A stretch of DNA of 64,000 nucleotides from Pirellulales bacterium (GTDB taxonomy: Bacteria; Planctomycetota; Planctomycetia; Pirellulales; PALSA-1355): assembly GCA_963733035.1 (NCBI GenBank), contig CAVTBU010000009.1:192001-256000 (forward strand). Direction: 5' to 3'. Below, piece after piece: positions 15,232 to 33,284 of this stretch. The position numbers and the translations under genes are program-made. The first letter of the stretch is position 1; each line of letters starts with the position of its first letter. The notes beneath the pieces are model-generated. The model was not told where the DNA came from and did not search any database. It worked only from the letters and a program-made list of their open reading frames with translations.

Positions 15232-16014
15232 ATGTGTCTAGTTGAATCAATCGACCGGGCAATTGAGTTTGTCCGTGAACATGAGCTGCTAATGACGGAG
15301 GACGATGTGGATGAGCTAATACGGATCGCGGGCAGGGTCGTCGAGTTGGCTTTCCGCAGCGGCCTTCATTATGTTCTGCCGGGCATCGACATGCGTTCGC
15401 TGGTTGAATATCCCAGCGTGTCGGAGCCTCCCGTTGTATTGTCCGCCCTCAACGTGCCGGGCGATTGGAGTCGTGATGTTCTTAACCTGGAGGGTGAAAC
15501 ACTTGAACGTGCGTTTCTGCCGTGCGTGCCGGACCGTTGGTACGAAGCAATGATGATTCTACGATCTCTGGCCTGCCGTGACGCTCCTGCGGAGGAGCCG
15601 AACCAGCCCCAACCCAAGAAGCCCAAGGCAAAGGGCATGGGCCGAGAGGAGGTATTCAAGCGACTGGTGGAGCTGTGGCAGCAGGGAGAGCCGTTCACCA
15701 CTTGTGAGGAAATGGCTGAGCGGTTTGGTTGTTCTGATACCACCGTCCACCGAGCAATCCAGCGCAGTGAGAAGCTAAAGGCTTGGGCTGCGAAAGGGCC
15801 GAAGCGTACCCAACGGCTCGATGACGTAGTGCTAGACCGGACGGCTCAGAGCCGGGAGCCCGCACCGGACGATGACGCCCAATTGCGAGAATTGATTGAA
15901 CAGGCCGAACCGTCTTTGCGAGCATTCTTACACACAGTGCCACCCGAGAAACTGCGGCAGATGTCGGCCGATGATTTGAAGCAGCTAGTAGTCAATCCTG
16001 AGTGCAGAGCCTAG
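15232..16014 (+). CDS. HTH DNA-binding protein (putative element regulator)
   Basis: TCEEMAERFGCSDTTVHRAIQR helix-turn-helix; GGGAG upstream of ATG 15232. Confidence 0.65.
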   Translation: MCLVESIDRAIEFVREHELLMTEDDVDELIRIAGRVVELAFRSGLHYVLPGIDMRSLVEYPSVSEPPVVLSALNVPGDWSRDVLNLEGETLERAFLPCVPDRWYEAMMILRSLACRDAPAEEPNQPQPKKPKAKGMGREEVFKRLVELWQQGEPFTTCEEMAERFGCSDTTVHRAIQRSEKLKAWAAKGPKRTQRLDDVVLDRTAQSREPAPDDDAQLRELIEQAEPSLRAFLHTVPPEKLRQMSADDLKQLVVNPECRA

Positions 16015-16021
16015 GCCCAGC

Positions 16022-16085
16022 AGAAACGTTTCTCAGGCATTTCTCCGCAAAAACACGGCATTTCTAGCAAAAACCGGAAACGTTT
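16022..16085. promoter_or_regulatory. Operator-like array: two AAACGTTT palindromes around two GGCATTTCT-N1-2-GCAAAAAC direct repeats
   Basis: AGAAACGTTTCT 16022-16033; repeats at 16036-16054 and 16057-16074; GAAACGTTT 16077-16085. Confidence 0.55.
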
Positions 16086-16133
16086 ACCACCTATAGAGGC
16101 CCGCGATTTTGGGCTGGAAAGGATTGGTGAACG

Positions 16134-16355
16134 ATGAACGACGGTACTGCTCCCCGGCTGCGTACGCCGGGCATTATCGCTGTGGAGTTAAAGGCTCCAC
16201 TCTCCCGAGTGCTCTACGTCTTACGCACTCGCCCCCACATTCGTCCGGCTGCCTACGCTGGCACGATCCGCCTCTACCGCGAAGACGCTGTGGCGATGGT
16301 CCGCCATGAGCTCAACGCGATTGACTCTAGAAAGGGGGGCCGAAGCGATGCCTAA
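16134..16355 (+). CDS. Small HTH protein, excisionase/AlpA-like
   Basis: 73 aa, TPGIIAVEL…RVLYVL…RLY pattern; overlaps the start of the helicase gene. Confidence 0.55.
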   Translation: MNDGTAPRLRTPGIIAVELKAPLSRVLYVLRTRPHIRPAAYAGTIRLYREDAVAMVRHELNAIDSRKGGRSDA

Positions 16356-17943
16356 GCGTGACGACTGCAGGAGGGAAGACCCTATTGCGAAGCGGCCCGA
16401 GTTCAAAAAACGCCTCAAAGAAGCTGAACTGGCATACCAGGTGCGTGACAAGAGGAGCATAGGTGAAGAGCTTACGCCAGAGGAAGAAGACATCTACCTG
16501 TTGGACGTTGCTCGACGTACGGAGCAAGCCCTATCCAAGAGAGATCCAAACGCCAAGTCACCGGCTCGTGCACCACTCCTCACGAGGCGGACGAAACACG
16601 ACTCAACCGATGAGCAAAAACTAGATCGGCTCCGACGTGAATGTGCGGAGTTTAACGGACCACCGACCCTTGGCCCGCACGGTGACCTGCGCACGATGGC
16701 CCAGGTGTTGGCTTTGCTTCAACATGCCACGCCATTGCGTGACGCGTTCCTGGAGGGAGTTGGTATTCCACCGTCCGCTCTCTCAGTCCGTGTTTGTGAC
16801 CGACTATCCCACGGGATTTTGGAGGATCTTGACCGCACGGAGGCGTCAGGAATCTGGGATATACCCTGGGAGAAGCTAGAGATTGATCGCCAGGAACGTC
16901 GTCCACGCCAAGGCATCAACACCCGTCGATTGTCGGACGTTTTGGCCCATGAAGTCGAATGGCAGTGGCCAGGCGTGACCGCCCTAGGAAAGTTGACCCT
17001 GTTCAGCGGCAATCCAGGCGTGGGTAAGACCTGGCTGGCGTTGGATATCATAGCCCGACTTACAACCGGTCGCCCTTTTCCGCTCCAGGCGAATCCGCCC
17101 AACGTTGACCGTAAATTTCCAAAGGGTGAATTACTTGTCGGCGGGTCAATCCGGCGCAATGCGTTGTTCATAAGTGCGGAAGACGCAGACGAAGATACCG
17201 TCAAGCCACGAATCGAGCTACTTGGTGGCGATTCGACGCGGATTCACACGTTGGACTTCATTTTTGAGAACCGCAATAGAAGAACCCTCTCGCTCGCGGA
17301 CCATATCAACTATTTAGACAAGTGGCTCTTTTCTGAGCCGATGGTTGAACTCGTGGTGATTGACCCGCTAACCGCGTTCCTGGGGAAAACAGACAGTCAC
17401 AAGAACGCGGACGTGCGAGCCGTCTTGGAGCCGTTATCGAAAGTGGCGGAAAAACGACGCGTAGCCATCATCGGCGTCAACCATCTCACCAAGGGAACGG
17501 AAGGATCAGCCGTACATCGCTCGATGGGCTCGATTGGCTTTATGGCTGCTGCCCGAGTCGCATGGCAAGTCACTGCCGATCCTGATGAGCCAGACCGTAG
17601 CCTAATGCTGCCCGTCAAGGTCAACATCGGGAAGACCCCACGGGGCTTAGCGTTTCGGCTCAGCGAAACGACCGGCATCGAGTGGGAACAGGAAAGCATT
17701 GATCTGACCGCTGACGAAGCCCTCAACGGACCACGCGAGAGCAAGCTTGACGACGCTAAGGACTTCTTGCGCAACCTGCTGCGAGAGGGGCCAATGCCTG
17801 CGACGGCGGTGGAGGACGCAGCCGCGAAGGCAAGAATCTTCGGATCGACACTCAAGACCGCCAAACGGCAACTCGGCATCAAGTCCGAAAAGAGCCCGGC
17901 ACCGAACGGCGGTTGGGAGTGGCGGCTACCGGAGCGTCGGTAA
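16348..17943 (+). CDS. AAA (RepA/AAA_25-type) replicative helicase of the element
   Basis: Walker A GNPGVGKT, ISAED, Walker B LVVIDPL, NHLTK, GSIGFMAAAR; RBS AAGGGGG before ATG 16348. Confidence 0.85.
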   Translation: MPKRDDCRREDPIAKRPEFKKRLKEAELAYQVRDKRSIGEELTPEEEDIYLLDVARRTEQALSKRDPNAKSPARAPLLTRRTKHDSTDEQKLDRLRRECAEFNGPPTLGPHGDLRTMAQVLALLQHATPLRDAFLEGVGIPPSALSVRVCDRLSHGILEDLDRTEASGIWDIPWEKLEIDRQERRPRQGINTRRLSDVLAHEVEWQWPGVTALGKLTLFSGNPGVGKTWLALDIIARLTTGRPFPLQANPPNVDRKFPKGELLVGGSIRRNALFISAEDADEDTVKPRIELLGGDSTRIHTLDFIFENRNRRTLSLADHINYLDKWLFSEPMVELVVIDPLTAFLGKTDSHKNADVRAVLEPLSKVAEKRRVAIIGVNHLTKGTEGSAVHRSMGSIGFMAAARVAWQVTADPDEPDRSLMLPVKVNIGKTPRGLAFRLSETTGIEWEQESIDLTADEALNGPRESKLDDAKDFLRNLLREGPMPATAVEDAAAKARIFGSTLKTAKRQLGIKSEKSPAPNGGWEWRLPERR

Positions 17944-17954
17944 TGCTATCCCGC

Positions 17955-18114
17955 GACCCCTTCACCCCCTTCGACTCCTTCGACAAATCTCCCACAAAAT
18001 TTGGGGGTAATCGAAGAAGGTGGTTTCACCCCCTTCGACTCCTTCAACTCACCAATTTTTGAAGGGGGTGAAGAAGGTGAAGGGGACGAAGGGGGTGAAG
18101 AAGACGAAGAAAGT
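17955..18114. repeat. Putative replication origin: convergent arrays of 9-bp iterons (ACCCCCTTC / GAAGGGGGT)
   Basis: Exact 21-bp repeat TTCACCCCCTTCGACTCCTTC at 17961-17981 and 18025-18045; six GAAG-led 9-mers in reverse orientation at 18061-18114; A/T runs between them; immediately after the helicase gene. Confidence 0.7.
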
Positions 18115-18226
18115 TACCCCCATCGCACACCCGGACTGACACCCTTGTTGCCTTCCCCCAGGAAGCAGTCGCTAGACGACGCTTGTGAAGGTTGCGAAGC
18201 AAACTGACCAACGGAGAAACACCGCG

Positions 18227-18445
18227 ATGACTGAACGACTCGCTAGGTACGAAGAGTTGCTGAAACGGGCTCGCCTAAATGTCCTGCTGCTACGGCGGGA
18301 GATTCTGCGAGTGGAGCGGGCGATGGGCAAAGGACTGCCCCCGCTCGACATAGAGCCTTGGCGTGTAGAGGTTTTGGACATGCGACGGATTGAGAAAGTG
18401 ATTCTGGGCCTAATCGAGTTGGAGAAAAACCGCACGCAGACTTGA
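18227..18445 (+). CDS. Small hypothetical coiled-coil protein
   Basis: GGAGA RBS, 72 aa MTERLARYEELL…. Confidence 0.55.
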   Translation: MTERLARYEELLKRARLNVLLLRREILRVERAMGKGLPPLDIEPWRVEVLDMRRIEKVILGLIELEKNRTQT

Positions 18446-18533
18446 CTTCCTGAATGGGGACATACGATTGTTATTAGCGTATAACCCACTTGGGTGGTTA
18501 GATATCCCCTCATTCATAGGAGAGACTAGCGAG

Positions 18534-19139
18534 ATGGCTATAGACTATTCAAAGTTGATTGGGAAGCGTTCAAAGTTGATCCCCATCGTCCCAACTTCGG
18601 ACCTGTACTTAGCGAACCTGGCAAGAGACTGCGCCGACGGGCACCGCTTCGCCAGAATCTTTAGGGATACATGGCGTCAGATTCCATTGGGGGATCGGCG
18701 GCGAATGGTGAAGCATTGGCACACCGATGAAAGAATGGATTCTGGCTGGTCCCACCCGCGTATATCGCGGAGGATGGAGCGGGAAAGATTTCCCATCTCG
18801 CGTTCTGATTACATTGCGAGTATCCAGCTAATTGCGGGCTGGAATAAAGAATATATCTACCCACACTATCTACCGGACGACGCCGAACATTGCGGTGCGT
18901 TTGTCACTGTCGCCGCAATGGGTCATAAGTTATGGTTCCACGCGCCATCGGTTGCACGGATGCCGGACAATGTTGTGGCGAACTTGATAGCCAAGGGGCT
19001 GGCTCATGTGTATCAGTGGGCGACAGAGCCGGAGCTGTTTGACGATCCAGATGACCCAGGCAACACGGAGTACCTTGAAGGGGACGCCAACCAGAAAGTT
19101 GAGAGTTGGGGCTTTGAACTGTACTCGATTGAGGAATAG
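18534..19139 (+). CDS. Hypothetical protein with degenerate zincin-like motif
   Basis: AGGAGA RBS; LIAKGLAHVYQ…EGDAN resembles HExxH…E with the first His and the Glu replaced. Confidence 0.55.
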   Translation: MAIDYSKLIGKRSKLIPIVPTSDLYLANLARDCADGHRFARIFRDTWRQIPLGDRRRMVKHWHTDERMDSGWSHPRISRRMERERFPISRSDYIASIQLIAGWNKEYIYPHYLPDDAEHCGAFVTVAAMGHKLWFHAPSVARMPDNVVANLIAKGLAHVYQWATEPELFDDPDDPGNTEYLEGDANQKVESWGFELYSIEE

Positions 19140-19165
19140 CTGCACTCCCGAGCTGGATGAATCGA

Positions 19166-19206
19166 CCATCTACAGAATCCAACAACCCACTACGCCTACC
19201 CCTAGC
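19166..19206 (+). repeat. 41-bp direct repeat, copy 1 (CCATCTACAGAATCCAACAACCCACTACGCCTACCCCTAGC)
   Basis: Identical to 26873-26913. Confidence 0.95.
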
Positions 19207-19261
19207 ACTCACGGCTGGCGAATCGCTTCGCTTTATCGTGTTGCAGTCAATGAAGTGCCTG

Positions 19262-20449
19262 TCAGTCTGCATCGCCAAACGCGAGCAGCTCACCGCCTTT
19301 GCTTAGAAACAGCAGTTTCCCATTGGTCATCAAACCTTCGATTCGCTCGCTATCGGAAGCACCGATCTTCCATTTCAATTCGCCGTTGGCTGCGTCTAGC
19401 CCGTAGAGCTGGCCGTACAAGGTGGCAACATATACCAACCCGCCACCGAGAAGAGGCGGATCATAAATCGGCGCACCATGACCTGGAACATAATCGCATT
19501 TGAATTTCCAGATCATCTTGCCAGTTTCTGCGTTGAGTCGATAGACGCTCCCGTTGAGGGATCCAAAAAATACAGCGTCGCCTTGCACGGCGGCAGCGGC
19601 TTCCACCTCGAAGCCGCAATGGAAATCCCATTTAACCAGGCCAGTTTCCCTGTCAAGGCAATACAAACGCCTATCCTTTGAACCGATATACACATACTTT
19701 TCAGTGACAACAGGATTGCCGTAAATCCAACCCTTGGTCTGAAAGGACCATTTTACCTGCGCCGTCTCGCAATTAATGGCAACGATTCGCGACTGATCAA
19801 AGATAGGCTGAAACAAGGTCTTTCCATCGGTGGCCGGCATCCTGGGCCTGGCTCCATCAGCGCCAATTCGGCCTCGCCTAGCATCGAAACCGGGCGGCGA
19901 CGGTGGTGCGTCCTTCAGCAAGTCGACAGTCCACTTGCAAACGCCAGACTTTGCATCAAATGCATAGACTAAGCCGTCTTCCGCCATGAAAACCAACAAA
20001 TCGCCGATCATCACCGGCACGAAACCTTGTGAGCCCGTCTCCCGTGTCCAAACCACGTTGCCGTTGGAGGTGTTAATCGCGACCACGTATTTCTCCGTCA
20101 AAAAGTACGCAACGTCGGCCATGACCAAAGATAATTTCAGTGGCGCTGCGTACGCTGGGCAGTTTGCATACCGTAGCAATGTTCCGTCAGAAGCTCGGCA
20201 TGAGCTCAGCTGCTGGCGATCCACCGAATAAAGGAGGTCGCCAGCAGGAATCACGTTCGTTCCATGCTGTCTCCAGACAACCTTTGGTTCGTGTTCCAAT
20301 TTCAGTCTCGAATCGCAATTCGTTCTGGCTTGGTCCACTTGCAAAATCGCATCCGCGCCATAAAGTAGCGCCCTCGCATCGAGAGTAAATGACAAGGCCA
20401 TGGCAAGAGCCACACTTGTGTAACGTGCGGGCCGCTTAGTGTTCAGCAT
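19262..20449 (-). CDS. PQQ-like (BamB-type) beta-propeller repeat protein, exported
   Basis: Repeated xxYAxDxxTGxxxW blades; signal-peptide-like N-terminus. Confidence 0.85.
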   Translation of the reverse strand: MLNTKRPARYTSVALAMALSFTLDARALLYGADAILQVDQARTNCDSRLKLEHEPKVVWRQHGTNVIPAGDLLYSVDRQQLSSCRASDGTLLRYANCPAYAAPLKLSLVMADVAYFLTEKYVVAINTSNGNVVWTRETGSQGFVPVMIGDLLVFMAEDGLVYAFDAKSGVCKWTVDLLKDAPPSPPGFDARRGRIGADGARPRMPATDGKTLFQPIFDQSRIVAINCETAQVKWSFQTKGWIYGNPVVTEKYVYIGSKDRRLYCLDRETGLVKWDFHCGFEVEAAAAVQGDAVFFGSLNGSVYRLNAETGKMIWKFKCDYVPGHGAPIYDPPLLGGGLVYVATLYGQLYGLDAANGELKWKIGASDSERIEGLMTNGKLLFLSKGGELLAFGDAD

Positions 20450-20643
20450 GACGATTTTCCCCAAGGTGATTAACGAGCCAAGCGAAGAGAGCTCAGCGAC
20501 AAAAGATCCTGGCAAAGATCACTATAGCGAAGGTGCGCCGAGCGGTAAGTGGGCTGCCTACCCTTGACCGCCAAGCTGCTCCCGAGCGGCAACACCACGG
20601 AGATCAGAAACAGCATTCCGCGGTCTTGCAAATCTCGGGACTC

Positions 20644-20662
20644 ACAACCCACTACGCCCACC
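20644..20662 (+). repeat. Partial third copy of the 41-bp repeat
   Basis: ACAACCCACTACGCCCACC vs ACAACCCACTACGCCTACC (18/19). Confidence 0.75.
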
Positions 20663-20700
20663 TCAATCCAGCTCCTCTCGCACGTTAGTTATAGGGCTCA

Positions 20701-20733
20701 GTAAGTCGAACGCTACATGGCCAAGATTTCCGG
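20701..20733 (+). repeat. 33-bp perfect inverted copy of the left att junction (comM fragment + TT core)
   Basis: GTAAGTCGAACGCTACATGGCCAAGATTTCCGG is the reverse complement of 15009-15041. Confidence 0.95.
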
Positions 20734-22299
20734 GGCGTTGGTGACAGGTTCCTGGTTTCGCATCCAGACGATGCCGCGCTCCAGTCGGTACTTGGACCGC
20801 TTGCCCCAGGGTCGCTTATCCGTGAAGATGTCCACGCGCGAGATTGACCCGCGGAAGAATTGCCGCAGTAGATGTGGATCGGCTTTCGTGGCAGCCTCCC
20901 TGAAGCGTCCAAACCACTCTAGAGCAGCTTCGACCCTCCTGTCTATGTCATCGCCCTTCGTGCGTGAATTGGACGCACAGGACGCCAGACGGGCTTCTGC
21001 AGCCACACGTTGTCGACGCAATCCTCTGATCTGCTCTTGTACGTCGTCAAGCAGATCGGCGTCGACTTCCACCAGACGTTGCTTGGCCTTGGCCAGCTTC
21101 GCCTCGATGGCATCAAGTTCACGACGCAGTGCCTGCGGCTCGGGTTCCCGTTTCAGTTCCTTCAGTTGGCGTCTCATCGAGGATGCCAACTGCGCCAGGG
21201 TCTCGGGGTTGTAGTACCGTTCCTGCAGGCCATCCAGCACGCCGGCAACGATTTCATTCTGGCGTAGGGTGTTGCGGTCGCAGTACGTCTTCCCGTGCTG
21301 GCGGTATCCGTAGCAGGTGTAGTGGTGCTTGCCGTTCGACAAATCGCCGATCATCTTGTGCCCACACTTGCCACAGCGCAGCACTCCCGAGAGTACGAAA
21401 CCACCGCCGCTTGGGTGCGGTGTGGAGCAGTTCCTGCGCTCGGCCAACTGCTGCTGCACCCGGTCGAACGTATCCCGGTCGATAATCGCCTCATGGTGAT
21501 CCTCGAAGACGATCCAGTCGGCCGCGTTGTTCCGTTGCTCGGGGCGGCCCTTCCGCTTGTATTTCGACATGCAGCGCATGTTCCAGATGTAGTCTCCCAC
21601 GTAGACCCGGTTGCGGAGCATTCCAGCGATTCCGTTCGCTGTCCAGCCCTTCCCCTTGGGTGATGGTCGGCCTGAGTTGTTCAGCTCGTCGGCCAGCCCG
21701 CGCAGGCTCTTGGCCGCTAGGTACTCGGTGAAGAGCCAACGAACGAGCGCGACATCCTCTGTTGGCCCCAGCAAGAGTCGCTTATTGACCGCGACGTACC
21801 CCAACGCCGGCTTGCCGGATGCCCACAGGCCCTGCTCTGCGAGGCTAGTCATGCCGCGCGTGACATTCCTCGACAGATCGGTCAGGTATTGGTTCTTAGC
21901 CTCCTGCTGAATGCCGTACAGTACTCGACCAGCGAAGTCCCCCCAATCGATGAACCCTTGGGCGACGGTCGCGAGATGTACGCCAGCCCTGCGCAGTGGA
22001 AAGATCCAGTACCCAGCCTCGAGGGAATCAAATCGCCCGAACCGATCAATATCCCAACACAGGATCGCTTGGAACTTCCGGTGTTGTCCGTCTCTGACCA
22101 TCGCTTGGAATTCACGCCGCTTGTCGGTCGCATCGCCGCTGATTCCCTCGTCGATGTATTCACGAACGATGTGATAGCCGTTGGCCTTGGCGTACTTCTC
22201 GACTGCCGTCCGTTGGTCAGGAATCGAGGTTTCCTGTCGGTCGGTGCTCATGCGGTAGTAGGCCACCGCAGGGATGTAGTTTTCATTCGTCGCAATCAC
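20713..22299 (-). CDS. Large serine recombinase #1 (catalytic + recombinase + zinc-ribbon domains)
   Basis: YYRMSTDRQ (catalytic Ser), DEGISG, DRFGR, LSGVLRCGKCG, YTC…C, coiled coil; GGAGG RBS with GTG start. Confidence 0.93.
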   Translation of the reverse strand: MIATNENYIPAVAYYRMSTDRQETSIPDQRTAVEKYAKANGYHIVREYIDEGISGDATDKRREFQAMVRDGQHRKFQAILCWDIDRFGRFDSLEAGYWIFPLRRAGVHLATVAQGFIDWGDFAGRVLYGIQQEAKNQYLTDLSRNVTRGMTSLAEQGLWASGKPALGYVAVNKRLLLGPTEDVALVRWLFTEYLAAKSLRGLADELNNSGRPSPKGKGWTANGIAGMLRNRVYVGDYIWNMRCMSKYKRKGRPEQRNNAADWIVFEDHHEAIIDRDTFDRVQQQLAERRNCSTPHPSGGGFVLSGVLRCGKCGHKMIGDLSNGKHHYTCYGYRQHGKTYCDRNTLRQNEIVAGVLDGLQERYYNPETLAQLASSMRRQLKELKREPEPQALRRELDAIEAKLAKAKQRLVEVDADLLDDVQEQIRGLRRQRVAAEARLASCASNSRTKGDDIDRRVEAALEWFGRFREAATKADPHLLRQFFRGSISRVDIFTDKRPWGKRSKYRLERGIVWMRNQEPVTNAPEILAM

Positions 22300-22381
22300 A
22301 ATCCCGAGCCTCCATGGTTGAGATCAACAGTTGACATTGAGAAAACCAGATCGGCGACAATTCGTCAAGGAAACGCCACCG

Positions 22382-23047
22382 CTAGACCTCTCCCAATCTG
22401 TGGATTGAGTAATCCTCGACCTTATCCCAAAGGATGGTCACTACGCCGTTTTGCGTCATCACCGCAATGCCCGGATCGTTGTAGAGCACGTACCCGGTCG
22501 GCCCCGCGTCGTTATGACCGATGATAACCTTCCACTGCTGGGGAATCGGAACTTTGATGCCTTCAATGCGATGGAGTTCAATAAACCGTCCACTGTTTCG
22601 CAATTCGATGCACGCCTCAGAGAATTCCTCGAGTTGCGATACAGCCGACTTGGAGAGTTGCTGGTTCACAACTGTTTCTACTAGTCCAAGCGTTAATGCG
22701 CGACTCACGACGGACGTGAACGATCCAATAAAGAAGAGCCCGCTGCTGAAACCCTTGAACTTGGCTTCGATTTGCCGCTGGATGCGTTCAGCGGCACGTA
22801 CAAAGCCAACATCGAACATGAGGATTGCAGAACAGACGTGCTCACGACCGGAAACCATTCGTATTCTGGCCACGATGGGGTCCGGTGGGACGGGCTCAGC
22901 GAGTGGTGGCTCCATGCTACCGCCGACCATTTCGTCGGTAAGGCGGACAGGCTGTTTGCACGACGGACATGACACGACCCGGCCGACTAGTCTCTGGTCA
23001 TACTTAATGCGTCGGCCACACATGGGACAATTCGTTGTGGCACTCAT
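22382..23047 (-). CDS. Hypothetical protein with N-terminal zinc ribbon
   Basis: CPMC…CPSC, Pro-rich linker, hydrophobic segment. Confidence 0.6.
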   Translation of the reverse strand: MSATTNCPMCGRRIKYDQRLVGRVVSCPSCKQPVRLTDEMVGGSMEPPLAEPVPPDPIVARIRMVSGREHVCSAILMFDVGFVRAAERIQRQIEAKFKGFSSGLFFIGSFTSVVSRALTLGLVETVVNQQLSKSAVSQLEEFSEACIELRNSGRFIELHRIEGIKVPIPQQWKVIIGHNDAGPTGYVLYNDPGIAVMTQNGVVTILWDKVEDYSIHRLGEV

Positions 23048-23123
23048 GCACGGCAGCCCTCGCGGCTTGGATTTGGAAATATATCCCCGCCCCCAGTTCG
23101 CCCAGGGGCGGGGTCAGGGACGC

Positions 23124-24912: not shown

Positions 24913-25830
24913 TCACGAGAACGGCCCCGGGTTCAGCTGGTTCAAGTCCGCGTATGCGAACCGGTTGAACGCCAAGTAGATCGCTGGCTGGCCCTCAGGC
25001 AGGATGGTGCCATCCTCATCGAGGTTGACCGTCATCGGCTCGCCCGTCTTCCGGTCGATGACGCGCTCTGCAGGCAGGCCGGGAAACGGCCGTGCGTAGT
25101 TGCCGTAGTTCAGCGCGGTACCCTTCCAGGTGTTCTCTGCAAACTGCCCCGGGTTGTCCGGGTCTTCCCTCAGCCGGAACCGAATCCGATAGGTGACGTG
25201 CTCGTAGATATCGCCGTTCACGTCCTCCTCGTCGGTTTCGATGTCATACAGCCACGCAGTACCGACCGGTGCGCCGTAGAACTCGGTCGCGCTGATCCGG
25301 TTGTGGAACCCAAGGAACACCGTAGGGTCGAAGGGAAACAGCTCGTAGCGGGTGACCTCGCGAATGTAGTCCCCTGAGGGCCCAGTCACCACAAGCGGCT
25401 CGCCGGCCGCAGTAGCGATGGAGTCTCCGGTCAAGACATCACGGGGCAGCGCCTCGTCGACCGTCTCACACCGCCACTTGCATATCGGCCGCCGGTAGAG
25501 TGGGTTCTCATCCTCGTTCGCGTTGGTGTAGCTGATGTCGTTCGTCAGCTTGGCGGTAACATCCCACAGCAGGCCTGGCAACCCGGTAATCGGGTTGCGG
25601 ATGGGACTCACCTCGCGGGCATCGTGATCCATCACCACCATGCCACGGTACAGCGTGCCGATCTGGGGAACACCGACTGCCCCGCAGATCTGATCGTAGT
25701 CCTCGGTGAGGCTCGAGACGACCTGAAAGGTGCGTGAGGCTTCGCGCTGCTTGTACCACAGCTTGTCCTTCTTCACCAACGCGATCTTGGCCGATTCGGT
25801 TTCGGCTTTCTCGCCAAGGCTAACCGCCAT
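24913..25830 (-). CDS. Hypothetical phage protein (possibly structural or tail-associated)
   Basis: 305 aa, host-like codon usage, TGATG-coupled to the upstream CSD gene and downstream of the capsid fragment; function inferred from context only. Confidence 0.5.
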   Translation of the reverse strand: MAVSLGEKAETESAKIALVKKDKLWYKQREASRTFQVVSSLTEDYDQICGAVGVPQIGTLYRGMVVMDHDAREVSPIRNPITGLPGLLWDVTAKLTNDISYTNANEDENPLYRRPICKWRCETVDEALPRDVLTGDSIATAAGEPLVVTGPSGDYIREVTRYELFPFDPTVFLGFHNRISATEFYGAPVGTAWLYDIETDEEDVNGDIYEHVTYRIRFRLREDPDNPGQFAENTWKGTALNYGNYARPFPGLPAERVIDRKTGEPMTVNLDEDGTILPEGQPAIYLAFNRFAYADLNQLNPGPFS

Positions 25831-26036
25831 CAGTCGAGCACCTCCACTCGCTCAGCACGCGGGCCACGGCCGGTGTCCTTGCCCAGCTCGAACTCGACGC
25901 GCTTACCGACGAGGTCGCTATTGAGTCTGCACCGGACGAGCGCGGAATGATGAAAGAATACGTCCTTGCTGATGTCCGCGCAGACGATGAAACCGAAACC
26001 GTACAGGTCTTTCACTGCCGAAACCAAACCCGTCAC
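25830..26036 (-). CDS. Cold-shock domain (OB-fold) protein
   Basis: YGFGFI (RNP1), DVFFHHSAL (RNP2), VEFE…GPRA; GGAGG RBS with GTG at 26036. Confidence 0.8.
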   Translation of the reverse strand: MTGLVSAVKDLYGFGFIVCADISKDVFFHHSALVRCRLNSDLVGKRVEFELGKDTGRGPRAERVEVLD

Positions 26037-26154
26037 CGCGATGGCCCTCCGATAGTGTTTCGTGGCGGGCCGCAGTCGCCGAACTACGGACCCGCCGCAC
26101 GGCCGAGGCAACTCAATCAAGCCGTGATTTCCTTGTTAGTTTGCTACGCCTGGT

Positions 26155-26866
26155 TCAGCTGGCGTCACCGCTCGACATGATGGCGAACTGCTCATCGCCC
26201 TGTGCCACGCCGAAGTCGTGGTAGCCACGCCATTGCATGCCCAGGGTGTTGAAGTCGGTCTGGCTGGACTCGATGGTCGGAACCGCGCGGCCGTTCAGGA
26301 GGGCGACCACGATTGCAGAACCAATTGAAGGTTCGGACATCAGGAACCACACAGTGCTGCTCTGGTTGCTGATTCCGCTGCCGTCCGGCTTCTTGATGCC
26401 GGTCACGTCCAGGTACTTGCTCTTCACGGGACGGTAGCGGCCTTGGTAGATGTTCTCGGTGCCGATCTGCGATCCGTTCGCGTCGACCGACAGTAGGGTC
26501 GTCTGTCGATACAGATTCGTCGCGGTGACGATCTGGGCAGTGCCCGTGAGCAGGATGGCTGGATCGGCCATAATCGGCTTTCCTCCTGCACCGGTGAACT
26601 TGCCGAAGGCGATTTCCCCGGCCTCCAGGCCCCCGATCGACAGCACATCATCGATCAGGTTGTTGTTGCCGACCGAGAAGAAACTGCCCGTGTTCGACAG
26701 TAGGGTGTCGTACACCTCCGATTCGATGGCCCAAACAGCACCATCAGCCAGACCGTTGAGCACCTGACGGAAGGCGTCCAGGTCGTCGTTGATGATGTGC
26801 CGGCGGTCGAGCGAAAGCATCCGCCCGCGGGTCTCCGCCTGCACGGTACGCTTCGAGTCCGACAGC
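26155..26866 (-). pseudogene. C-terminal fragment of a phage major capsid protein (Mu gpT-like), 5' truncated
   Basis: TRGRMLSLDRRHIINDDLDAF…LNGRAVPTIE…LGMQWRGYHDFGV; the frame is closed by TAG just upstream, next to the 41-bp repeat. Confidence 0.75.
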
Positions 26867-26872
26867 TATTCT

Positions 26873-26913
26873 CCATCTACAGAATCCAACAACCCACTAC
26901 GCCTACCCCTAGC
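26873..26913 (+). repeat. 41-bp direct repeat, copy 2
   Basis: Identical to 19166-19206; about 200 bp upstream of the resolvase. Confidence 0.95.
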
Positions 26914-27039
26914 CGAAACCGCAGCTGATCCTCGCCCGGATCGTAAAGCGTCAATGTCGCTGCGCTAGCCCCGTCGATTCCCGAGCGTTCTGCCCCTAGC
27001 TGCCCCCTCTGACCGTAACGTTTCGGCTCTAGTCGATAA

Positions 27040-27070
27040 TTTACTACGTGTGTGGTAGAGCGTAGACTAA
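27040..27070 (+). promoter_or_regulatory. Putative sigma70 promoter (TTTACT-N17-TAGACT) with operator-like spacer
   Basis: 24/31 identical to 27770-27800. Confidence 0.6.
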
Positions 27071-27114
27071 GGGTAACGGTACGTATGTTCACTACGATAC
27101 AGGAGGGGCGAACC

Positions 27115-27714
27115 ATGAAGCATATTGCGATCTACTTGCGGGTATCCACGACCGGACAGGACACGAAAAGCCAGCTACCCGACCTGGAACGATGGGCTGC
27201 GGCTCAATCCGATCCGGTCAAGTTCTACAGCGACAAGGCGAGCGGTAAGACGATGGACCGGCCGGGCTGGGCGAAGCTAGAGGCAGCGATTCGACAGGGC
27301 CGCGTTAAGGCTGTCGTAGTGTGGAGGATTGATCGACTCGGCCGCACCGCCAAAGGGCTTACTGCGCTGTTCGACGAACTACGCGAGCGGAAGATCAACC
27401 TAGTCTCGCTACGCGATGGCCTGGACCTATCGACCCCGGCCGGGCGGTTGATGGCGAACGTGCTTGCGTCTGTGGCTCAGTATGAAACCGAAGTGCGGGG
27501 CGAGCGAGTAGCAGCCGGGCAAGCCAAAGCACGGTCGCAGGGCAAGCGTTGGGGCGGCTCGCAACCGGGAGTGCGGAAGAAGGTCACCGATACGCAGCTC
27601 AAGGCTATCCACTCGATGCGTGCGAACGGCGAGCGTATCACCCATATCGCCACCGCTCTGGGGCTCTCTCGGCCCACGATCTATGCCGTCCTACGCGAGC
27701 CCGCAGCAGCGTAA
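27115..27714 (+). CDS. Small serine recombinase (resolvase/invertase family) with C-terminal HTH
   Basis: YLRVST, DKASG, RPG, DRLGR, DLSTPAGRLM, AQYE, LGLSRPTIY; AGGAGG RBS. Confidence 0.93.
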   Translation: MKHIAIYLRVSTTGQDTKSQLPDLERWAAAQSDPVKFYSDKASGKTMDRPGWAKLEAAIRQGRVKAVVVWRIDRLGRTAKGLTALFDELRERKINLVSLRDGLDLSTPAGRLMANVLASVAQYETEVRGERVAAGQAKARSQGKRWGGSQPGVRKKVTDTQLKAIHSMRANGERITHIATALGLSRPTIYAVLREPAAA

Positions 27715-27769
27715 AGTGAGGGCCGAGTGGAGCCTACGAAATACCCCGCAGATACTGGGCAGATAACGG

Positions 27770-27800
27770 TTTACTACAAGTGTGGTAGTAGCTAGGCTAA
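27770..27800 (+). promoter_or_regulatory. Putative sigma70 promoter (TTTACT-N17-TAGGCT) for the terminase operon
   Basis: Near-duplicate of 27040-27070. Confidence 0.6.
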
Positions 27801-27824
27801 TAGTAAGCGATGGGGGTATAAGCA

Positions 27825-28220
27825 ATGCCCAGAGTCAGCAGGGGCACCCGAACCAACCAAAGCCATAAGGGCCGAGTCTTGCCTCCCAAGTACACAGCCG
27901 GGTTTCTCACAACGCTGGACGGCCGCACTGAGTTGGCCCGTGGTCTACGCGAGCGGTTTGACTCGATTGTGGCCGATCTGGGCGGACCCGGAGAGCTATC
28001 GCAAATCAAGGCATCGCTGGTTGAACGGTTTGTCTGGCTGGAAGCATCGTTGATGAGCATCGAAGCAGCGATGGCCGAGACGACCGACCCGAAGCAGTAT
28101 GCCGACCTAGTTGCCCGCTGGACTCAGGCTTGCAACACGCTGCTAGGCATCGGTAAGTCGCTCGGCATTGACCGCAAGCTTGGCTCGGCGCCTTGGCTGG
28201 CGGAGGCTAAGCAAACATGA
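27825..28220 (+). CDS. Putative terminase small subunit
   Basis: 131 aa helical protein (DGRT…DLGG…LGIDR), ATGA-coupled to the terminase large subunit; call rests mainly on position. Confidence 0.55.
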   Translation: MPRVSRGTRTNQSHKGRVLPPKYTAGFLTTLDGRTELARGLRERFDSIVADLGGPGELSQIKASLVERFVWLEASLMSIEAAMAETTDPKQYADLVARWTQACNTLLGIGKSLGIDRKLGSAPWLAEAKQT

Positions 28221-29845
28221 TCGACGCCCAACAGTACCAGCTCTATGCCTCCAATCCGGCTGCCTTCCGCGATGATCTCAACGTAGAGGTAAGCGGCTCG
28301 GTCTGTCGCTTCGGTGATATCCAGGACGACTGGCAGCGTCGTGACTTTGAATCCCTAGACCCGGCTTGGCTGCGCTGTACAGGCAGGGACCACGGCGACA
28401 ACGCAATACGGACACGCGGCTACCTGGAACGCGGACGCGGACACTCCAAGACAACCGACCTAGCGATGATGGCCATCTGGGCCTTGGCGTTCGCCACTCG
28501 CTCACTGCGGGGCTACTGCTTCGCTGCCGACAAGGATCAAGCCGCGTTGCTCCACGATGCGATGCGTACGCTCGTGCGCTTGAATCCCTGGCTGGCTGAG
28601 ATCCTAGAAGTTCAGCGGGAACAGGTTGTAAACGTCGCACAAGACCATCGGGGCAACGGGAGCCGATTAACGATCTTCACCAGTGACGTCGGATCGTCCT
28701 ACGGTATCCTCCCGGACTTCATCATTGCCGACGAACTAACGCACTGGGCTGGTGATGGCTCGCTCTGGTACTCGATCATCAGCTCTGCCGCCAAGCAGAC
28801 GAATTGCGTGCTGGTCGTTATCTCCAACGCGGGTTTCGTCGACTCATGGCAGTGGAACGTCCGGGAAGCGGCTCGCAACGATCCTAGCTGGATCTTCTCT
28901 CGGCTCGATGGGCCAAGGGCTTCTTGGCTGACCAAAGATCGACTAGCCGAACAACGGCGCATGCTTCCGCCCATAGCGTATGACCGGCTGTGGGGAAACC
29001 GTTGGAGTTCAGGCGGTGGCGATGCCTTAACGGAGGAGGATATCCAGGCCGCATTCGACAACAACCTGCGGCCGATGACCGGTCGTGAATCAGATTGGGT
29101 ATTCGTAGCGGGACTGGATTTAGGGCTCAAGCGTGACGGCTCGGCCGTGGTTGTACTGGCGGCACCGGTCAACGGTCGCAACGGCGGTAGGATTCGCCTA
29201 GCTCATCATCAACTCTGGCGTCCTCAGGATTCAGGCGGCAAGGTCAAGCTGACGGAAATCGAAGACCATATCAAAAAGTTGGATCGGCGGTTTAACCTGC
29301 GATGCGTTGGCTTCGATCCATGGCAAGCCGAACACATGGCCCAACGCCTGGAAGTCCATTCCCGGCACCGTAGCCGCAGCTCTCGCTTTCGCTCGATAGA
29401 TGGGCCCTGGATGCGGGAGGTACCGCCCACAGGCGGCAACCTTCGCACAATCGCCAACCTAACCATCGAGACGTTCACGGATCGTCGGTTAATGCTCTTC
29501 GACTGTCCGCCGTTGGAGCGTGACCTACGCAAGCTGCGAGCGGAAGAGAAGAGCTACGGCGTTCGCCTTACCAGCCCACGCGATGAACATGGCCACGGCG
29601 ATAGCTTCACAGCCCTTGCCAATGCCTTGCTGCTGGCCCATGAGATAGCCGGTGAAAAGGTAATCACGCTCCAGGCTTGGGGCAGCGGGATGCCGTACGA
29701 CGATGGCGATGAGGAAGACGACCGGCACGCGATTGACGACTACCTGGAAGAAATGGAGTACCTGGAGAGCTTGCCTGATGGACCAGAGCGAGTGATTCGA
29801 GGCATCGAACACTGGGAGAACAACACGAATGACCCACTACTTTGA
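28217..29845 (+). CDS. Terminase large subunit
   Basis: Walker A RGRGHSKTT, AADKDQA, Walker B FIIADE, ISNAG coupling motif, nuclease AGLDLG…FDPW…HGD. Confidence 0.85.
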   Translation: MIDAQQYQLYASNPAAFRDDLNVEVSGSVCRFGDIQDDWQRRDFESLDPAWLRCTGRDHGDNAIRTRGYLERGRGHSKTTDLAMMAIWALAFATRSLRGYCFAADKDQAALLHDAMRTLVRLNPWLAEILEVQREQVVNVAQDHRGNGSRLTIFTSDVGSSYGILPDFIIADELTHWAGDGSLWYSIISSAAKQTNCVLVVISNAGFVDSWQWNVREAARNDPSWIFSRLDGPRASWLTKDRLAEQRRMLPPIAYDRLWGNRWSSGGGDALTEEDIQAAFDNNLRPMTGRESDWVFVAGLDLGLKRDGSAVVVLAAPVNGRNGGRIRLAHHQLWRPQDSGGKVKLTEIEDHIKKLDRRFNLRCVGFDPWQAEHMAQRLEVHSRHRSRSSRFRSIDGPWMREVPPTGGNLRTIANLTIETFTDRRLMLFDCPPLERDLRKLRAEEKSYGVRLTSPRDEHGHGDSFTALANALLLAHEIAGEKVITLQAWGSGMPYDDGDEEDDRHAIDDYLEEMEYLESLPDGPERVIRGIEHWENNTNDPLL

Positions 29846-30311
29846 ACGTATGGCTAAAGAGGCCGAACACTTCTATGCATTTACAGACCGCATGGGTTCT
29901 GAGCCGGTGTTTGCCGGGGGATGGTGGTACTTCAAGAACGGGGCTGTAAGCGATGGTTTCCGGTCGCATCACGAACCGCCAGAAGACCCTAACGAATTGC
30001 TCAAGAACCGATACCGCTATGCCGTCACAAGACTCGACGAGCTGCTAGACCTATACATCCACAACAAAAAAGTGATCGCCGAGCAAATTGACATCCATCG
30101 CATGGGGGCAGGACCAATGCCCGCGTCGGGCTGGGACGACGGGATGAAATCGCTCCGATCAAAAGTCCAGGTCGCTAGGGCCGTCGTCCGCTTGCTGTTG
30201 AAGAGACACCTACCGGACGAACAACCTGATGACGATTACGACAAGAACGAAGCACGGCGAGAGCTGACAGACAGCGCCCGTCGCACACTCGTCAAACTAG
30301 AGCGAGAGTAG
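29829..30311 (+). CDS. Hypothetical protein
   Basis: 160 aa, overlaps the terL end, inside the operon. Confidence 0.6.
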   Translation: MTHYFERMAKEAEHFYAFTDRMGSEPVFAGGWWYFKNGAVSDGFRSHHEPPEDPNELLKNRYRYAVTRLDELLDLYIHNKKVIAEQIDIHRMGAGPMPASGWDDGMKSLRSKVQVARAVVRLLLKRHLPDEQPDDDYDKNEARRELTDSARRTLVKLERE

Positions 30312-30315
30312 AGGC

Positions 30316-31149
30316 ATGCTGACGCTTACCGTCAACCTGACCGCCGCAGCTCGCAGCGAATCAATCAACGGACGGCCCTACCTGGTCGCTCCAATGACGT
30401 TGATCGTGCCGGGAGTCTTGAACGGCAGCAGGGGCCCGTTGCTCTATCCGCCCGAAGAGATTGAACGGAGCGTAGCGGCCTGGAACGGTGTACCGCTCGT
30501 GTTGGGCCACCCTCGCAACAGCAATGGCGTTCCTATCTCGGCTCGCTCGCTGGAGATTCTGAACCGGATCGGCCTAGGTTTCGTCCAGGGAGCCCGCACG
30601 GAGAACGGCAAGCTGATGGCGGAAGGCTGGTTTGATGTAATCCGCATGAAAGAAGTCCATCCAGCGGCCCTTGCTCGACTTCAAGGCGGACTACCGCTTG
30701 AACTGAGTACGGGGCTCAACACCGACAACTATCGGGCCACGCCTGGATCAACCTACAACGGCCGAGCCTACCATGCCGTGGCTCGCAACTACGAACCCGA
30801 CCACCTAGCAATCCTGCCGGAAGACAAAGGAGCCTGTTCCCTTAACGACGGATGTGGAGTCCTAAACATGCGATATGAAGATTTCAACCAATACCCCCAA
30901 CAGCTTGTTCACAACGGAGTGGTCTACCAGCCGGTAGGTCCAGTAGCCAACGACCTGAATGAAGAGCTGCTGGAAGAGCCGACGATCAACTGGCGGGAGT
31001 GGGCCGGCTGGGAAGATCCCAAGCCCGCAGCTCAGCCTTGCTCGAATCGTGCCGCAACAGAGAACGTCCAAGCTGATCCGAACGACATCAACGCCGAGAA
31101 GCTTGAAGAGGCGGATATCAACTGGGCCGAGTGGGCGAAAGGGAATTGA
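30316..31149 (+). CDS. DUF2213-like phage head protein (prohead protease/scaffold-like)
   Basis: GVLNG, WNGVPLVLGHP, ELSTG, PDHLAILP…GACS…DGCG. Confidence 0.75.
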   Translation: MLTLTVNLTAAARSESINGRPYLVAPMTLIVPGVLNGSRGPLLYPPEEIERSVAAWNGVPLVLGHPRNSNGVPISARSLEILNRIGLGFVQGARTENGKLMAEGWFDVIRMKEVHPAALARLQGGLPLELSTGLNTDNYRATPGSTYNGRAYHAVARNYEPDHLAILPEDKGACSLNDGCGVLNMRYEDFNQYPQQLVHNGVVYQPVGPVANDLNEELLEEPTINWREWAGWEDPKPAAQPCSNRAATENVQADPNDINAEKLEEADINWAEWAKGN

Positions 31150-31207
31150 ACACGAACACAGGCGGCAAGTCAGAGCGGGAGTTGTTCCCTGACTCGCTCC
31201 TTCGCCG

Positions 31208-31518
31208 CTGAGGGGTCGGGTTGGACTTTCCTCATTGGTCTGCCCGGCCCCTCGGAAAACAACTAAGCGGGGCTTTACGTCCGTGGGTTCTGCTTGGGGG
31301 TAACGACCGGGCTGCCGGGAGCGTATCCGGTGGCTCGGTCGTCTAAATCAATTGTGACTTTTACGCCTCCTTTACCGCACATGGGGGCAGGCGAATAATT
31401 CCGAAATGGCGGCACGTGTCGGACTAATTACCCGATGCGGGCTATCTCTCTAGCGACTTCAGATAGCCAGCCGCCTGTTTTTCTCTTACCCGAAGTCGCG
31501 GAAGTCGCGGAAGTCGTA
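31208..31518 (+). ncRNA. Candidate structured RNA or long integrase leader
   Basis: Hairpins 31208-31255 and 31303-31342 whose non-Watson-Crick pairs are G-U on the + strand; hairpin GGCTATCT/AGATAGCC at ~31440-31468; tandem GAAGTCGCG x2 + GAAGTCGTA before the ATG. Confidence 0.4.
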
Positions 31519-31520
31519 CC

Positions 31521-33284
31521 ATGTCCAAGAAGCTGATGCCGGCCGCAGGCTACCTTCGTAAGTCAACGGCTGGAGAAGGTAAGGAAGGTAAAGAGCGTCA
31601 AGAAAAGTCCATCCCTACTCAAAAGGCTGAGATTGAAAAGCTGGCCAAGGCAGAGGGCTACAAGATCGTTCGCTGGTACGCCGATCCCGGCATCAGCGGA
31701 TGGAAGAGGGGCGTCAAGCGTCCAGACTTTACCCGGATGATTGCCGAAGCGCAGCAGCTTCGGGATATCCAAGCCATCGTCTGCGACGACATCGACCGAT
31801 TTAGCCGTGCGGATATGGATGAGGTCCAAGCTGATGTGTTCGCTCTGAAACAGGCGGGAGTTCAGTACATCATTACCGCAGCCCAAGGCGTCTATGACCT
31901 GGGCAGCCACGGCACTGACTTCGGTAAGGTTGTAAAGTTCATGGCCGACGTGTGGGGCTCGAATCAATTCAGTCGCAAACTGTCTCGCCGGATAGCTCGG
32001 GCTCGCCGTGATGCCGCTAGGGAAGGCAAGCGGAGCGGGGGAAGTGCCCCGTACGGCTTGGCCAACGACGGTAAGGGCGGGCTGAAATTTGGTAAGCGTT
32101 CTGAGGTGAAGATCGTTCGCCGTATCTTCGATGAATTCGTCAAGCAGCTTAGCTCGATGAACGCCATCGCCAGCCGACTCAATGCCGACAAGATACCTGC
32201 CCCCAGGGGTGGCGTCTGGCATGTCGCCACGGTGCGTGATTTACTCATGCAGCCAGCCTACGCGGGAGAGTTCACCTACAACCGCAAGCAATCCGGCCAG
32301 TTTCATATTCTTAACGAGTCGGGGGAAGTGGTTGAGGCAACTCCCGAGACTCGTAAGAACCACTGGAAACTGAACGACGCAGCGGTTATCTCCAAGCCAA
32401 AAGCCCACAAGCCTCTCGTTGATCGGACGGTGTTCAACGCGGCGCAGAAGCGGCTCGCCAGCTTCAGCCTCAAGGGAAATCGACGCCCACGTGAGAATGG
32501 CTACCCGCTGGCTGGTATTTTGATCTGCGACCATTGCGGCAAGCCCATGTACGGCTGTCATCAGAAGGGTCGCAATTACCGCGTGTACCGCTGTAGCACC
32601 CCCGGCAAGTCCGGGATGGGAACATGCGGCGCATACGAGATTCGTGAAGAGCGCATTTTGCCCTTTGTACTACAGCTACTCGGGGAGGAACTGGAAAACT
32701 TTGACCCACTAATGGTTAATCCACCGGATGAGCTTCTCCCCTCAAACCGGGATGAAAAGCGGGCAGAACTACAGGAAGAACGTGATGCGTTGGCCAAGCG
32801 AATTGAACAGGCCGAAGAGAACCTGTTGTACGCTACTGATCCTCGCACCCGCAAAAATTTTGACGTACGGGTATGCCGGTTGCGGGCTGAGCTAGACCAA
32901 CTCGATGCACAACTGAATACCCCCACAACGCGGCGTGGCTTTACTGACGATGAAATCGAGGGGCTGAACACATTCTGGAATCGTTTTCATGAGGATGCCC
33001 TTTCAATGCCCATCCCAGACGGCCGAGCAGATCCGTGGTGGATCTGCTTCCAACGCCCAATGCACGATAGTGATGCGTGGGAGCGACACATTGCGGTAAG
33101 GCCACGACAGGTGAACGAGATACTACATATGCTGGGCGCAGAGGTGCGGCTCCGGTGGAATACCCAGCATGTCACCCTAGCCAACGGTAAGACCCAGAAC
33201 CGATACACTCTTTGCCGTGGCCGTTTCCGTTTGAGCCAAAAAGCTGGGAAAATACCACGTCCGGTTTTATCGTGTTCAGCTTGA
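31521..33284 (+). CDS. Large serine integrase #2 (cognate integrase; its 3' end spans the right att junction)
   Basis: [35 protein letters not shown]…C, coiled coil; the stop TGA overlaps comM sequence. Confidence 0.93.

Follow-up and report, generated by a model that had tools for sequence, protein, structure and literature searches.

Analysis of a 64,000-nucleotide stretch of a Pirellulales genome (hereafter the window: positions 192001-256000 of contig C9 of G000, a 6.6-Mb genome in 10 contigs) revealed an 18.2-kb mobile element inserted in the host gene comM. Judged from its genes, the element combines a replication module of its own, an AAA_25 helicase followed by iterons, with a conserved packaging module, and lacks portal, intact capsid, tail and lysis genes. 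We propose, with modest confidence, that it represents an undescribed compact integrative family of phage-satellite-like elements of Planctomycetota, most likely packaged in helper capsids. More tentatively, this would be a new and widespread satellite family with a full terminase, a helical protein in the place of the portal, often a protease-like enzyme and no capsid, whose motor would dock on the portal of a helper (a lambda-type phage or a host head-tail cluster) and package only satellite DNA. We infer helper dependence from this gene content. The initial annotation of the region had described a terminase-bearing core of this kind, an observation that our analysis confirmed, and had interpreted it as a satellite family that brings its own packaging motor and borrows helper capsids, an interpretation that was partly supported.

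The packaging module and its conserved gene order

Scans of the window's open reading frames (ORFs) with Pfam (29 ORFs) and PHROGs (28 ORFs) bore out the gene order and content initially claimed. No ORF matched a portal, tail or lysis family, the only capsid signal was a C-terminal fragment, and the module set of a complete prophage (portal, capsid, tail and lysis) was thus not found in the element. tblastn with three portal queries likewise found no portal in the window, and no head-tail adaptor or connector family of Pfam or PHROGs was matched, families whose distant forms could escape such models.

What the element does carry is a large terminase subunit (TerL) that keeps a Walker A-like GHSKTT motif, a DE Walker B motif and three nuclease Asp motifs across eight aligned sequences. 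The ratio of nonsynonymous to synonymous substitution rates (dN/dS) was 0.15 for the pair L144 versus L150, other pairs being saturated; judged by these motifs and this ratio, TerL appears functional and under purifying selection. A sequence search of the PDB with TerL gave no match, and TerL is only distantly related to that of any isolated phage, with six matching records at no more than 27.5% identity, none covering 80% of the protein. The ORF whose stop overlaps the TerL start, initially called TerS-like, was assigned by structure: its AlphaFold model (pLDDT 70) best matches the HK97 small terminase (6z6e_C, Z 9.5, root-mean-square deviation 2.6 over 86 residues), followed by a second HK97 small terminase entry (8pop_A, Z 8.9), the next unrelated row having a Z of 7.2. 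This match suggests a small terminase, although for a helical protein a structural match is not proof. A local hidden Markov model (HMM) of the protein matches 44 of the loci collected.

Upstream of TerS lies a small serine recombinase of the resolvase/invertase type, homologues of which, 70-78% identical, directly precede TerS in L040, L140 and L158/159, with weaker homologues upstream of TerS in L148/149, L150, L152, L153 and L163, and the resolvase is a conserved member of the packaging module. Downstream of TerL, the post-TerL protein is predicted (pLDDT 75.8) to fold into a helix, a small beta hairpin and a long antiparallel helical hairpin. A fold search gave no match in BFVD at E≤0.001 and only generic helical hairpins or coiled coils in the PDB (Z≤7.5). 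Searching 1.84 billion proteins with an 11-member profile retrieved 1394 representatives (clustered at 50% identity) at E≤1e-3, 794 of them at E≤1e-10, ten of which were looked up and proved to be unnamed or ‘hypothetical’; a word-based search found only three proteins, the family's own members.

The module ends with a DUF2213 protein resembling prohead proteases. Its homologues number 452 at E≤1e-5 (152-485 aa), and the best 120 of these 452 are 41-61% identical to it over the N-terminal domain. Invariant in 29 sequences are His65, Ser131 (in ELSTG), Asp162-His163 and a GACSxxDGCG motif; the invariant His and Ser presumably correspond to the His/Ser dyad of HK97-type prohead proteases. The motif INW(R/A)EWA occurs twice in the C-terminal tail (30976-31005 and 31108-31143), and was dropped as a candidate shared signal, being found elsewhere only once (L016:12348-13148) among the relatives scanned.

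A search for TerL relatives yielded three loci in reference genomes, one in a further genome (L040) and 80 in metagenomes, the closest named relatives being metagenome-assembled genomes of Thermoguttaceae and Planctomycetaceae. From the close clade, 20 metagenome loci (TerL 53-66% identical) were examined by tblastn; they include five duplicate pairs (L141=L015, L211=L016, L148~L149, L158~L159 and L154~L155). A post-TerL homologue directly follows TerL in 18 of the 20; an HMM added L164, leaving only L152 without one. In seven loci DUF2213 comes next after the post-TerL ORF, and in L164 it lies upstream; the resolvase is found just upstream of TerS in nine and several kb upstream in L150, and a large serine recombinase lies downstream in six. 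Pfam annotation of 13 distinct elements (the window's, L015, L016, L017, L040, L142, L144, L146, L149, L150, L153, L159 and L163) showed that portal, Mu-F and capsid genes are all absent from 11, and no tail or lysis genes were found in any of the 13, in support of a conserved compact family as opposed to a one-off deletion remnant.

Borders are visible on both sides in five elements (the window's, L153, L017, L015 and L040), which span approximately 10.5-13.5 kb, the lower figure being the window's core without the foreign block described below. For example, L153 is a 12.5-kb insert splitting a DGOK gene, with the order resolvase-TerS-TerL-ORF-DUF2213-large serine recombinase of the window and, as there, the recombinase directly after DUF2213. 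The recombinase of L015 reads into ispH, and L015, L017 and L040 have host genes on both flanks within at most 13.5 kb. The module common to these elements is (resolvase)-TerS-TerL-helical ORF-(DUF2213), around which the integrase (tyrosine or serine type), the replication module (AAA_25, Toprim-AAA_25, DUF3987 or DUF3854), the insertion site (including comM, ispH and DGOK) and the cargo vary. The cargo includes a protein kinase, SHD1 proteins and, in one relative, a protein with a TIR domain (CAP12/Pycsar-type); satellites often carry defence cargo such as TIR-domain genes. For ORF264 of L017, an atlas search from a low-confidence model gave no usable match.

In a TerL tree of 46 rows (quick IQ-TREE search with SH-aLRT and no bootstrap), the 11 portal-less rows, L144 and L159 fall within one clade of 20 rows (SH-aLRT 96). 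A contrasting scan of 81 loci by tblastn, with five portal, two Mu-F and three capsid queries, found a lambda-family portal beside TerL in 14 loci outside this clade (TerL 38-46% identical), four of which also have Mu-F and six a capsid gene. The order in these sister clades is TerL-portal-MuF-capsid, as in the IMG/VR contig L070 and the metagenome loci L181 and L189. The post-TerL family directly follows TerL in 26 of 171 TerL-bearing loci and, among the loci compared, is confined to the close clade, where it occupies the position that the portal has in the sister clades. Because compact portal-less elements share one TerL clade and portals belong to its sister clades, the closest relatives are not full prophages devoid of compact synteny, the outcome that the initial annotation had named as contradicting its proposal.

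Several observations weigh against the satellite reading. In L159 the post-TerL ORF is immediately followed by a Phage_portal_3 gene and then by several recombinases, and L144 has a Mu-F gene near its contig end, so some clade members may be phages or fresher remnants; L159 is nested inside the clade, the internal resolution of which is weak. Several relatives are short contigs, in which the absence of a gene is valid only for the stretch covered. No close relative was present in IMG/VR, where the most similar TerL (42% identical) lies in the phage-like contig L070. The window's copy, at 18.2 kb, exceeds the approximately 12.5 to at most 13.5 kb of the four relatives with two visible flanks, and lacks a gene of about 92 aa (motif W.RS.KGNLWR.W; best E in the window 0.049) that sits between the replication module and TerS in eight distinct relatives. 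Neither the TerS-like ORF nor the post-TerL assignment has HMM support from Pfam or PHROGs, and the label ‘xis/AlpA-like’ initially given to the 73-aa ORF is unsupported because this ORF has no Pfam match even at E up to 1. The serine integrase, put forward as a departure from known satellites, is indeed of the serine type, but serine integrases are known in PLEs and in VEIME module 3, as stated in passages of PMC9618062. Finally, no helper, excised circle or virion-packaged copy was seen, the public reads consisting of low-depth fragments from one run.

The portal of L159 and its string of recombinases could also be taken as a sign that the element is a decaying prophage remnant from which portal, capsid, tail and lysis genes were deleted, as could the truncated capsid gene and rearranged foreign block of the window and a second orphan TerL on contig C8 of the same genome. 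We consider this explanation very unlikely. Eleven of the 13 elements share this compact gene set while differing in integrase, replication module and insertion site, the apparently intact TerL bears the marks of purifying selection, and the post-TerL gene takes the position of the sister-clade portal; moreover, the truncated capsid gene lies in the foreign block and not in the core, and its closest relatives belong to another type of element.

The insertion in comM and the core genes

The interrupted host gene is comM (yifB), a Mg-chelatase-like gene on the minus strand with a match in 28 of the 31 genomes searched, G000 included. Its N-terminal part is 83-93% identical to the eleven best-matching uninterrupted copies of relatives. 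The extent of the insert (Table 1) was set as given because the two halves of comM map to adjacent positions on five aligned uninterrupted copies, with a 9-nt overlap or a gap of at most 2 nt. The borders given in the initial annotation are corrected here to the comM junctions. Consistent with an element mobilized by a large serine recombinase, LSR2 has Resolvase, Recombinase and Zn-ribbon domains, the insertion is precise, and the junctions and attB share few bases. LSR2 lies at one end of the element beside attR, the placement of the integrase in phage-inducible chromosomal islands (PICIs) though of serine rather than tyrosine type, and is 44-47% identical to the recombinases that L015 and L017 carry at the corresponding end. 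Judged from the sequence, LSR2 is the integrase that inserted the element into comM. GC content is 53-59% over most of the element versus 59-64% in the immediate flanks (11-15 kb and 33-37 kb).

comM is also split or fragmented in the related genomes G016 (contig C87), G014, G002, G003, G006, G011, G012 and G015. Because the pieces in G016:C87 (108-548 and 13325-13999) sit approximately 12.8 kb apart on the same contig, comM may be a recurrent insertion hotspot in this family of genomes, as this spacing suggests. Elsewhere in the window, a 3-kb segment (57001-60000) stands out from the rest by its strong AT skew (0.23-0.36).

The core of approximately 10.5 kb encodes, besides the integrase, a helix-turn-helix (HTH) protein, a small ORF, the AAA_25 helicase, iterons, two further ORFs, the resolvase, the TerS-like protein, TerL, the 160-aa ORF and DUF2213. 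The HTH regulator initially proposed stands as a weak match, in an ORF that begins at 15091 and not at 15232; its product is 41% identical over 122 aa to that of L016:5183-6079. An AlpA-type regulator or excisionase, a PICI trait, was not detected in the window, and the relative L150 has an HTH_17 protein. The helicase is 51% identical to that of L017:5785-7155, and the iterons reported after it proved real. L017, L016 and L149 likewise have iteron arrays of their own immediately behind the helicase gene, analogous but unrelated in sequence, so that the PICI-type layout of a replicase with an adjacent origin is found in the window and in three relatives. For the 223-aa ORF, a protein atlas yielded only leads to M48/U49/ImmA-like peptidases (scores 0.90-0.92). 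A promoter and terminator scan found fewer sites than in shuffled sequence.

The ORFs without a family raise the question of a self-sufficient miniature virus, whose capsid and portal would be hidden among them: no family is detectable for the post-TerL ORF, the 223-aa ORF or three ORFs of L017 between DUF2213 and the recombinase. The unassigned core ORFs are, however, only 73, 86, 160 and 223 aa long, which is small compared with typical portals and HK97-fold capsid proteins. In addition, the model of the post-TerL protein is a helical hairpin, the L017 ORFs after DUF2213 are not conserved in other relatives, and tail and lysis genes were not found, all of which makes a miniature virus highly improbable.

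Table 1. Coordinates of the element, its genes and its flanks in the window
Feature	Position	Strand	Basis and remarks
comM/yifB C-terminal fragment	14615-15046	-	translation MAKISGPLLDRIDIQ...; aligns to intact comM of L002, L003, L005, L007, L008
Mobile element (whole insert)	~15047-33281		18.2 kb; splits host comM; comM junction alignments
attL junction	15009-15053		comM-derived sequence stops near 15041-15047, element starts; alignment of attL and attR with intact attB of four relatives, on which the halves overlap by about 2-9 nt
HTH-containing regulator candidate, 307 aa	15091-16014	+	HTH_11 E 4.7e-5, weak, under family cut-off
73-aa ORF	16134-16355	+	between regulator and helicase; 59% identity to L016:6186-6401
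AAA_25 (RepA/DnaB-like) replicative helicase/initiator	16306-17943	+	PF13481 E 3.8e-27; PHROG primase/helicase families
Iteron block, candidate origin	17952-18110		short repeat units, two inverted arrays (families D2, D3; pairs I2, I4, I7)
86-aa ORF	18185-18445	+	no Pfam or PHROG match
223-aa ORF	18468-19139	+	no Pfam or PHROG match; not conserved in relatives
Direct repeat, left copy	19166-19206	+	41 nt, perfect; bounds foreign block
Putative foreign block	19207-26872		7.7 kb; second recombinase, cargo, truncated capsid gene
PQQ/BamB-like beta-propeller gene	19262-20515	-	in foreign block
attP-like site	20689-20733		in foreign block, next to LSR1 stop
Second large serine recombinase LSR1	20713-22299	-	31% identity to LSR2
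ORF without known family	22521-23567	+	in foreign block
ORF without known family	23650-24264	+	in foreign block
ORF without known family	24306-24908	+	in foreign block
ORF without known family	24913-25830	-	in foreign block
Cold-shock-domain (CSD) gene	25830-26120	-	in foreign block
Truncated capsid gene	26155-26874	-	Phage_capsid_4 positions 63/74-250 of 262; C-terminal 229-236 aa
Direct repeat, right copy	26873-26913	+	41 nt, perfect; bounds foreign block
Small serine recombinase (resolvase/invertase type)	27052-27714	+	PF00239 E 2.6e-40 and HTH_7
TerS-like protein, 131 aa	27825-28220	+	stop overlaps TerL start; homologues upstream of TerL in relatives
Terminase large subunit TerL, apparently intact	28217-29845	+	PF03354 TerL_ATPase E 1.8e-10; phrog_9 E 3e-29
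Post-TerL protein, 160 aa	29829-30311	+	hallmark of this family of elements; alignments and model
DUF2213 protein, 277 aa, prohead-protease-like	30316-31149	+	PF09979 E 2.3e-5; phrog_760 and phrog_530 (‘head maturation protease’)
Large serine recombinase LSR2, integrase of whole element	31521-33284	+	Resolvase, Recombinase, Zn_ribbon_recom domains; stop codon abuts attR
attR junction	33270-33290		comM resumes at about 33276-33282; attL/attR/attB alignment
comM N-terminal part	33283-34447	-	ChlI and Mg_chelatase domains (Pfam)

The block between the 41-nt repeats

Because perfect 41-nt direct repeats, with no such match in 100 shuffles, flank the 7.7-kb block, we treated it as an insert, and only on this count does the core of about 10.5 kb described in the initial annotation hold. 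The repeat sequence is absent from every other locus fetched, and the idea that it is a conserved resolvase site was dropped, as it does not lie upstream of the resolvase in L040 or any other locus. Apart from the recombinase, the proteins of the block have no match in the compact relatives, and the capsid homology ends exactly at the edge of the repeat. The sole capsid signal of the element is a fragment within this block. Our reading is that the block is probably captured foreign DNA, acquired by homologous or resolvase-mediated recombination at the 41-nt sequence. The window's copy is a composite and, as a result, possibly an impaired member of the family.

The block itself may point back to comM. 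The attP-like site beside the LSR1 stop and attL form a 45-nt inverted repeat in which 33 nt are identical, suggesting that LSR1 derives from another comM-targeting element. On the comM-derived side of attL, the window has TAA where relatives have CAG. Both features hint that two elements targeting comM recombined, or underwent gene conversion, at some time in the past.

Sequences homologous to the capsid fragment occur in 58 of the 301 genomes of this class, in most cases at the end of an open frame of approximately 650-850 aa; in the one checked with PHROGs (G603:C26), an N-terminal protease domain precedes the capsid domain in one fused protein. We also dropped the idea that a single protease-capsid gene had been split into DUF2213 and the capsid fragment, because DUF2213 is dissimilar to the N-terminal parts of intact fusions. 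The G603 homologue lies in a compact element of approximately 12 kb (G603:C26:15716-27716; L064, L065) with a tyrosine integrase, an AAA_25/DnaB helicase, a 699-aa protease-capsid fusion and a CSD gene, the adjacency of capsid and CSD genes being common to this element and the window's block. Neither TerL nor a portal was detected in it, raising the possibility of a ‘capsid-only’ counterpart to the ‘terminase-only’ family.

The sole public sequencing run with sequence of the element is from soil DNA and gave low-depth, short, near-identical contigs of parts of the core and of comM, none over 19.2-26.9 kb; no RNA run was listed with sequence of the element.

Proposed mechanism and comparison with known satellites

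We propose that a helper phage would induce the element, leading to its excision and to replication from the iterons. The element's TerS and TerL would then recognize and cut its DNA and pump it into helper procapsids by docking on the helper portal. The post-TerL protein and DUF2213 may act on assembly of the helper procapsid, for example as adaptor, scaffold or protease, and the small size of the element would suit a reduced capsid or packaging of concatemers. The window's copy would later have gained the 7.7-kb block from other comM-targeting or capsid-bearing elements via the 41-nt repeat.

Three further sets of loci bear on packaging in these genomes. On contig C6 of the same genome (G000:C6:455000-470000; L068, L069) lies a head-tail cluster encoding GNAT, a Terminase_6C-type TerL, a lambda-family portal, a cement protein, a Phage_capsid_4 capsid and a tail tube, with portal and capsid of the same families as those beside TerL in the sister clades. 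A resident prophage, a cluster akin to a gene-transfer agent and a candidate helper are all conceivable identities for it, and its connection with the element is circumstantial. The second TerL of the genome (37% identical), on contig C8 (G000:C8:64000-83999; L013), has a tyrosine integrase and an Hsp70 gene nearby and ORFs without known family downstream; neither Pfam nor tblastn found a portal at this locus. Of 20 genomes sampled from one planctomycete family (f16; loci L041-L051), 16 carry a TerL that is 36-46% identical to the window's, with a lambda-type portal beside it in only three of the 11 loci fetched. The three of these annotated with Pfam (L041, L042 and L047) have an ABC-type ATPase upstream of TerL and, in one, a ParB_N protein, and the locus looks like a conserved chromosomal island.

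Two of these sets of loci also bear on another explanation, in which the element is autonomous and integrative and its terminase serves something other than its own helper-dependent spread, either as an anti-phage island that cuts or mis-packages phage DNA or as a partner of a domesticated gene-transfer-agent-like head-tail cluster. The C6 cluster, the related TerL in 16 of 20 genomes with a portal beside it in three of 11 loci, the TIR-domain gene (CAP12/Pycsar-type) of one relative and the fact that no packaged copy was observed in the low-depth reads of one run all fit such a role. Integrases, replication modules, iterons and varied insertion sites are, by contrast, typical of self-mobile elements, and genuine packaging is indicated by a TerS together with a TerL whose ATPase and nuclease motifs are intact, so we regard an autonomous role as unlikely, if less so than prophage decay or a miniature virus.

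Should the favored reading of a helper-dependent satellite be correct, it would be the first family of satellite-like elements to be defined for Planctomycetota, a group of bacteria about whose phages little is known. It would also raise the question of how a foreign TerL recognizes the portal of the helper, and the post-TerL family of approximately 160 aa, with its 1394 representatives, would be marked as a packaging-linked gene.

Comparison with phage head modules of the sister clades shows a homologous TerL (38-46% identical) and a shared repertoire of DUF2213, Mu-F and Phage_capsid_4 genes. In contrast to these modules, where portal, Mu-F and capsid follow TerL, the element has the helical 160-aa ORF, and its module ends at DUF2213. 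Classical PICIs and SaPIs share with the element an integrase, a regulator, a replication gene with adjacent origin, packaging genes including a TerS-like gene, and a similar size; in them, TerS redirects packaging. PICIs depend on the helper's TerL and typically have AlpA and a tyrosine integrase; PLEs likewise borrow the large terminase of the helper. The element differs from PICIs in its intact TerL, in the lack of a detectable AlpA in the window and in its large serine recombinase. No hint of P4-like (Sid/Psu/Delta) or PLE core genes appeared in the scans with the general families of Pfam and PHROGs.

Capsid-forming PICIs (cfPICIs) resemble the element in being integrative, approximately 10-15 kb long and equipped with replication genes, a TerS and a TerL of their own, and with a prohead-protease-type gene. 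The element has the terL of its own that marks cfPICIs (PF03354 and phrog_9, motifs intact), but the cfPICI core, in the passages that describe it, joins terL with major capsid, portal, head-tail adaptor, connector and HNH genes (PMC10085698; PMC10690885), and the window yielded no portal, adaptor, connector or intact major capsid gene. These comparisons uphold the initial claim that the element fits neither the PICI nor the cfPICI pattern. VEIMEs, as described in passages of PMC9618062, have serine or tyrosine integrases, primases or helicases, TerS homologues and ‘motor-like ATPases’ and no major capsid gene, with the large terminase expected from the helper. VEIMEs and PLEs share with the element the integrase types, a primase or helicase, a TerS homologue and the lack of a major capsid gene; a module of TerL plus DUF2213 is not described for VEIMEs in these passages.

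A literature search turned up neither satellites that bear TerL and lack a portal nor satellites of Planctomycetes, which is not proof that none are in print. Set against the descriptions of the known families, the element fits none of them. Satellites as described either borrow the helper's large terminase (P4, PICIs and VEIMEs) or bring a whole head (cfPICIs and Streptomyces satellites), and a family that brings only the motor would, if our proposal holds, represent a third satellite strategy.

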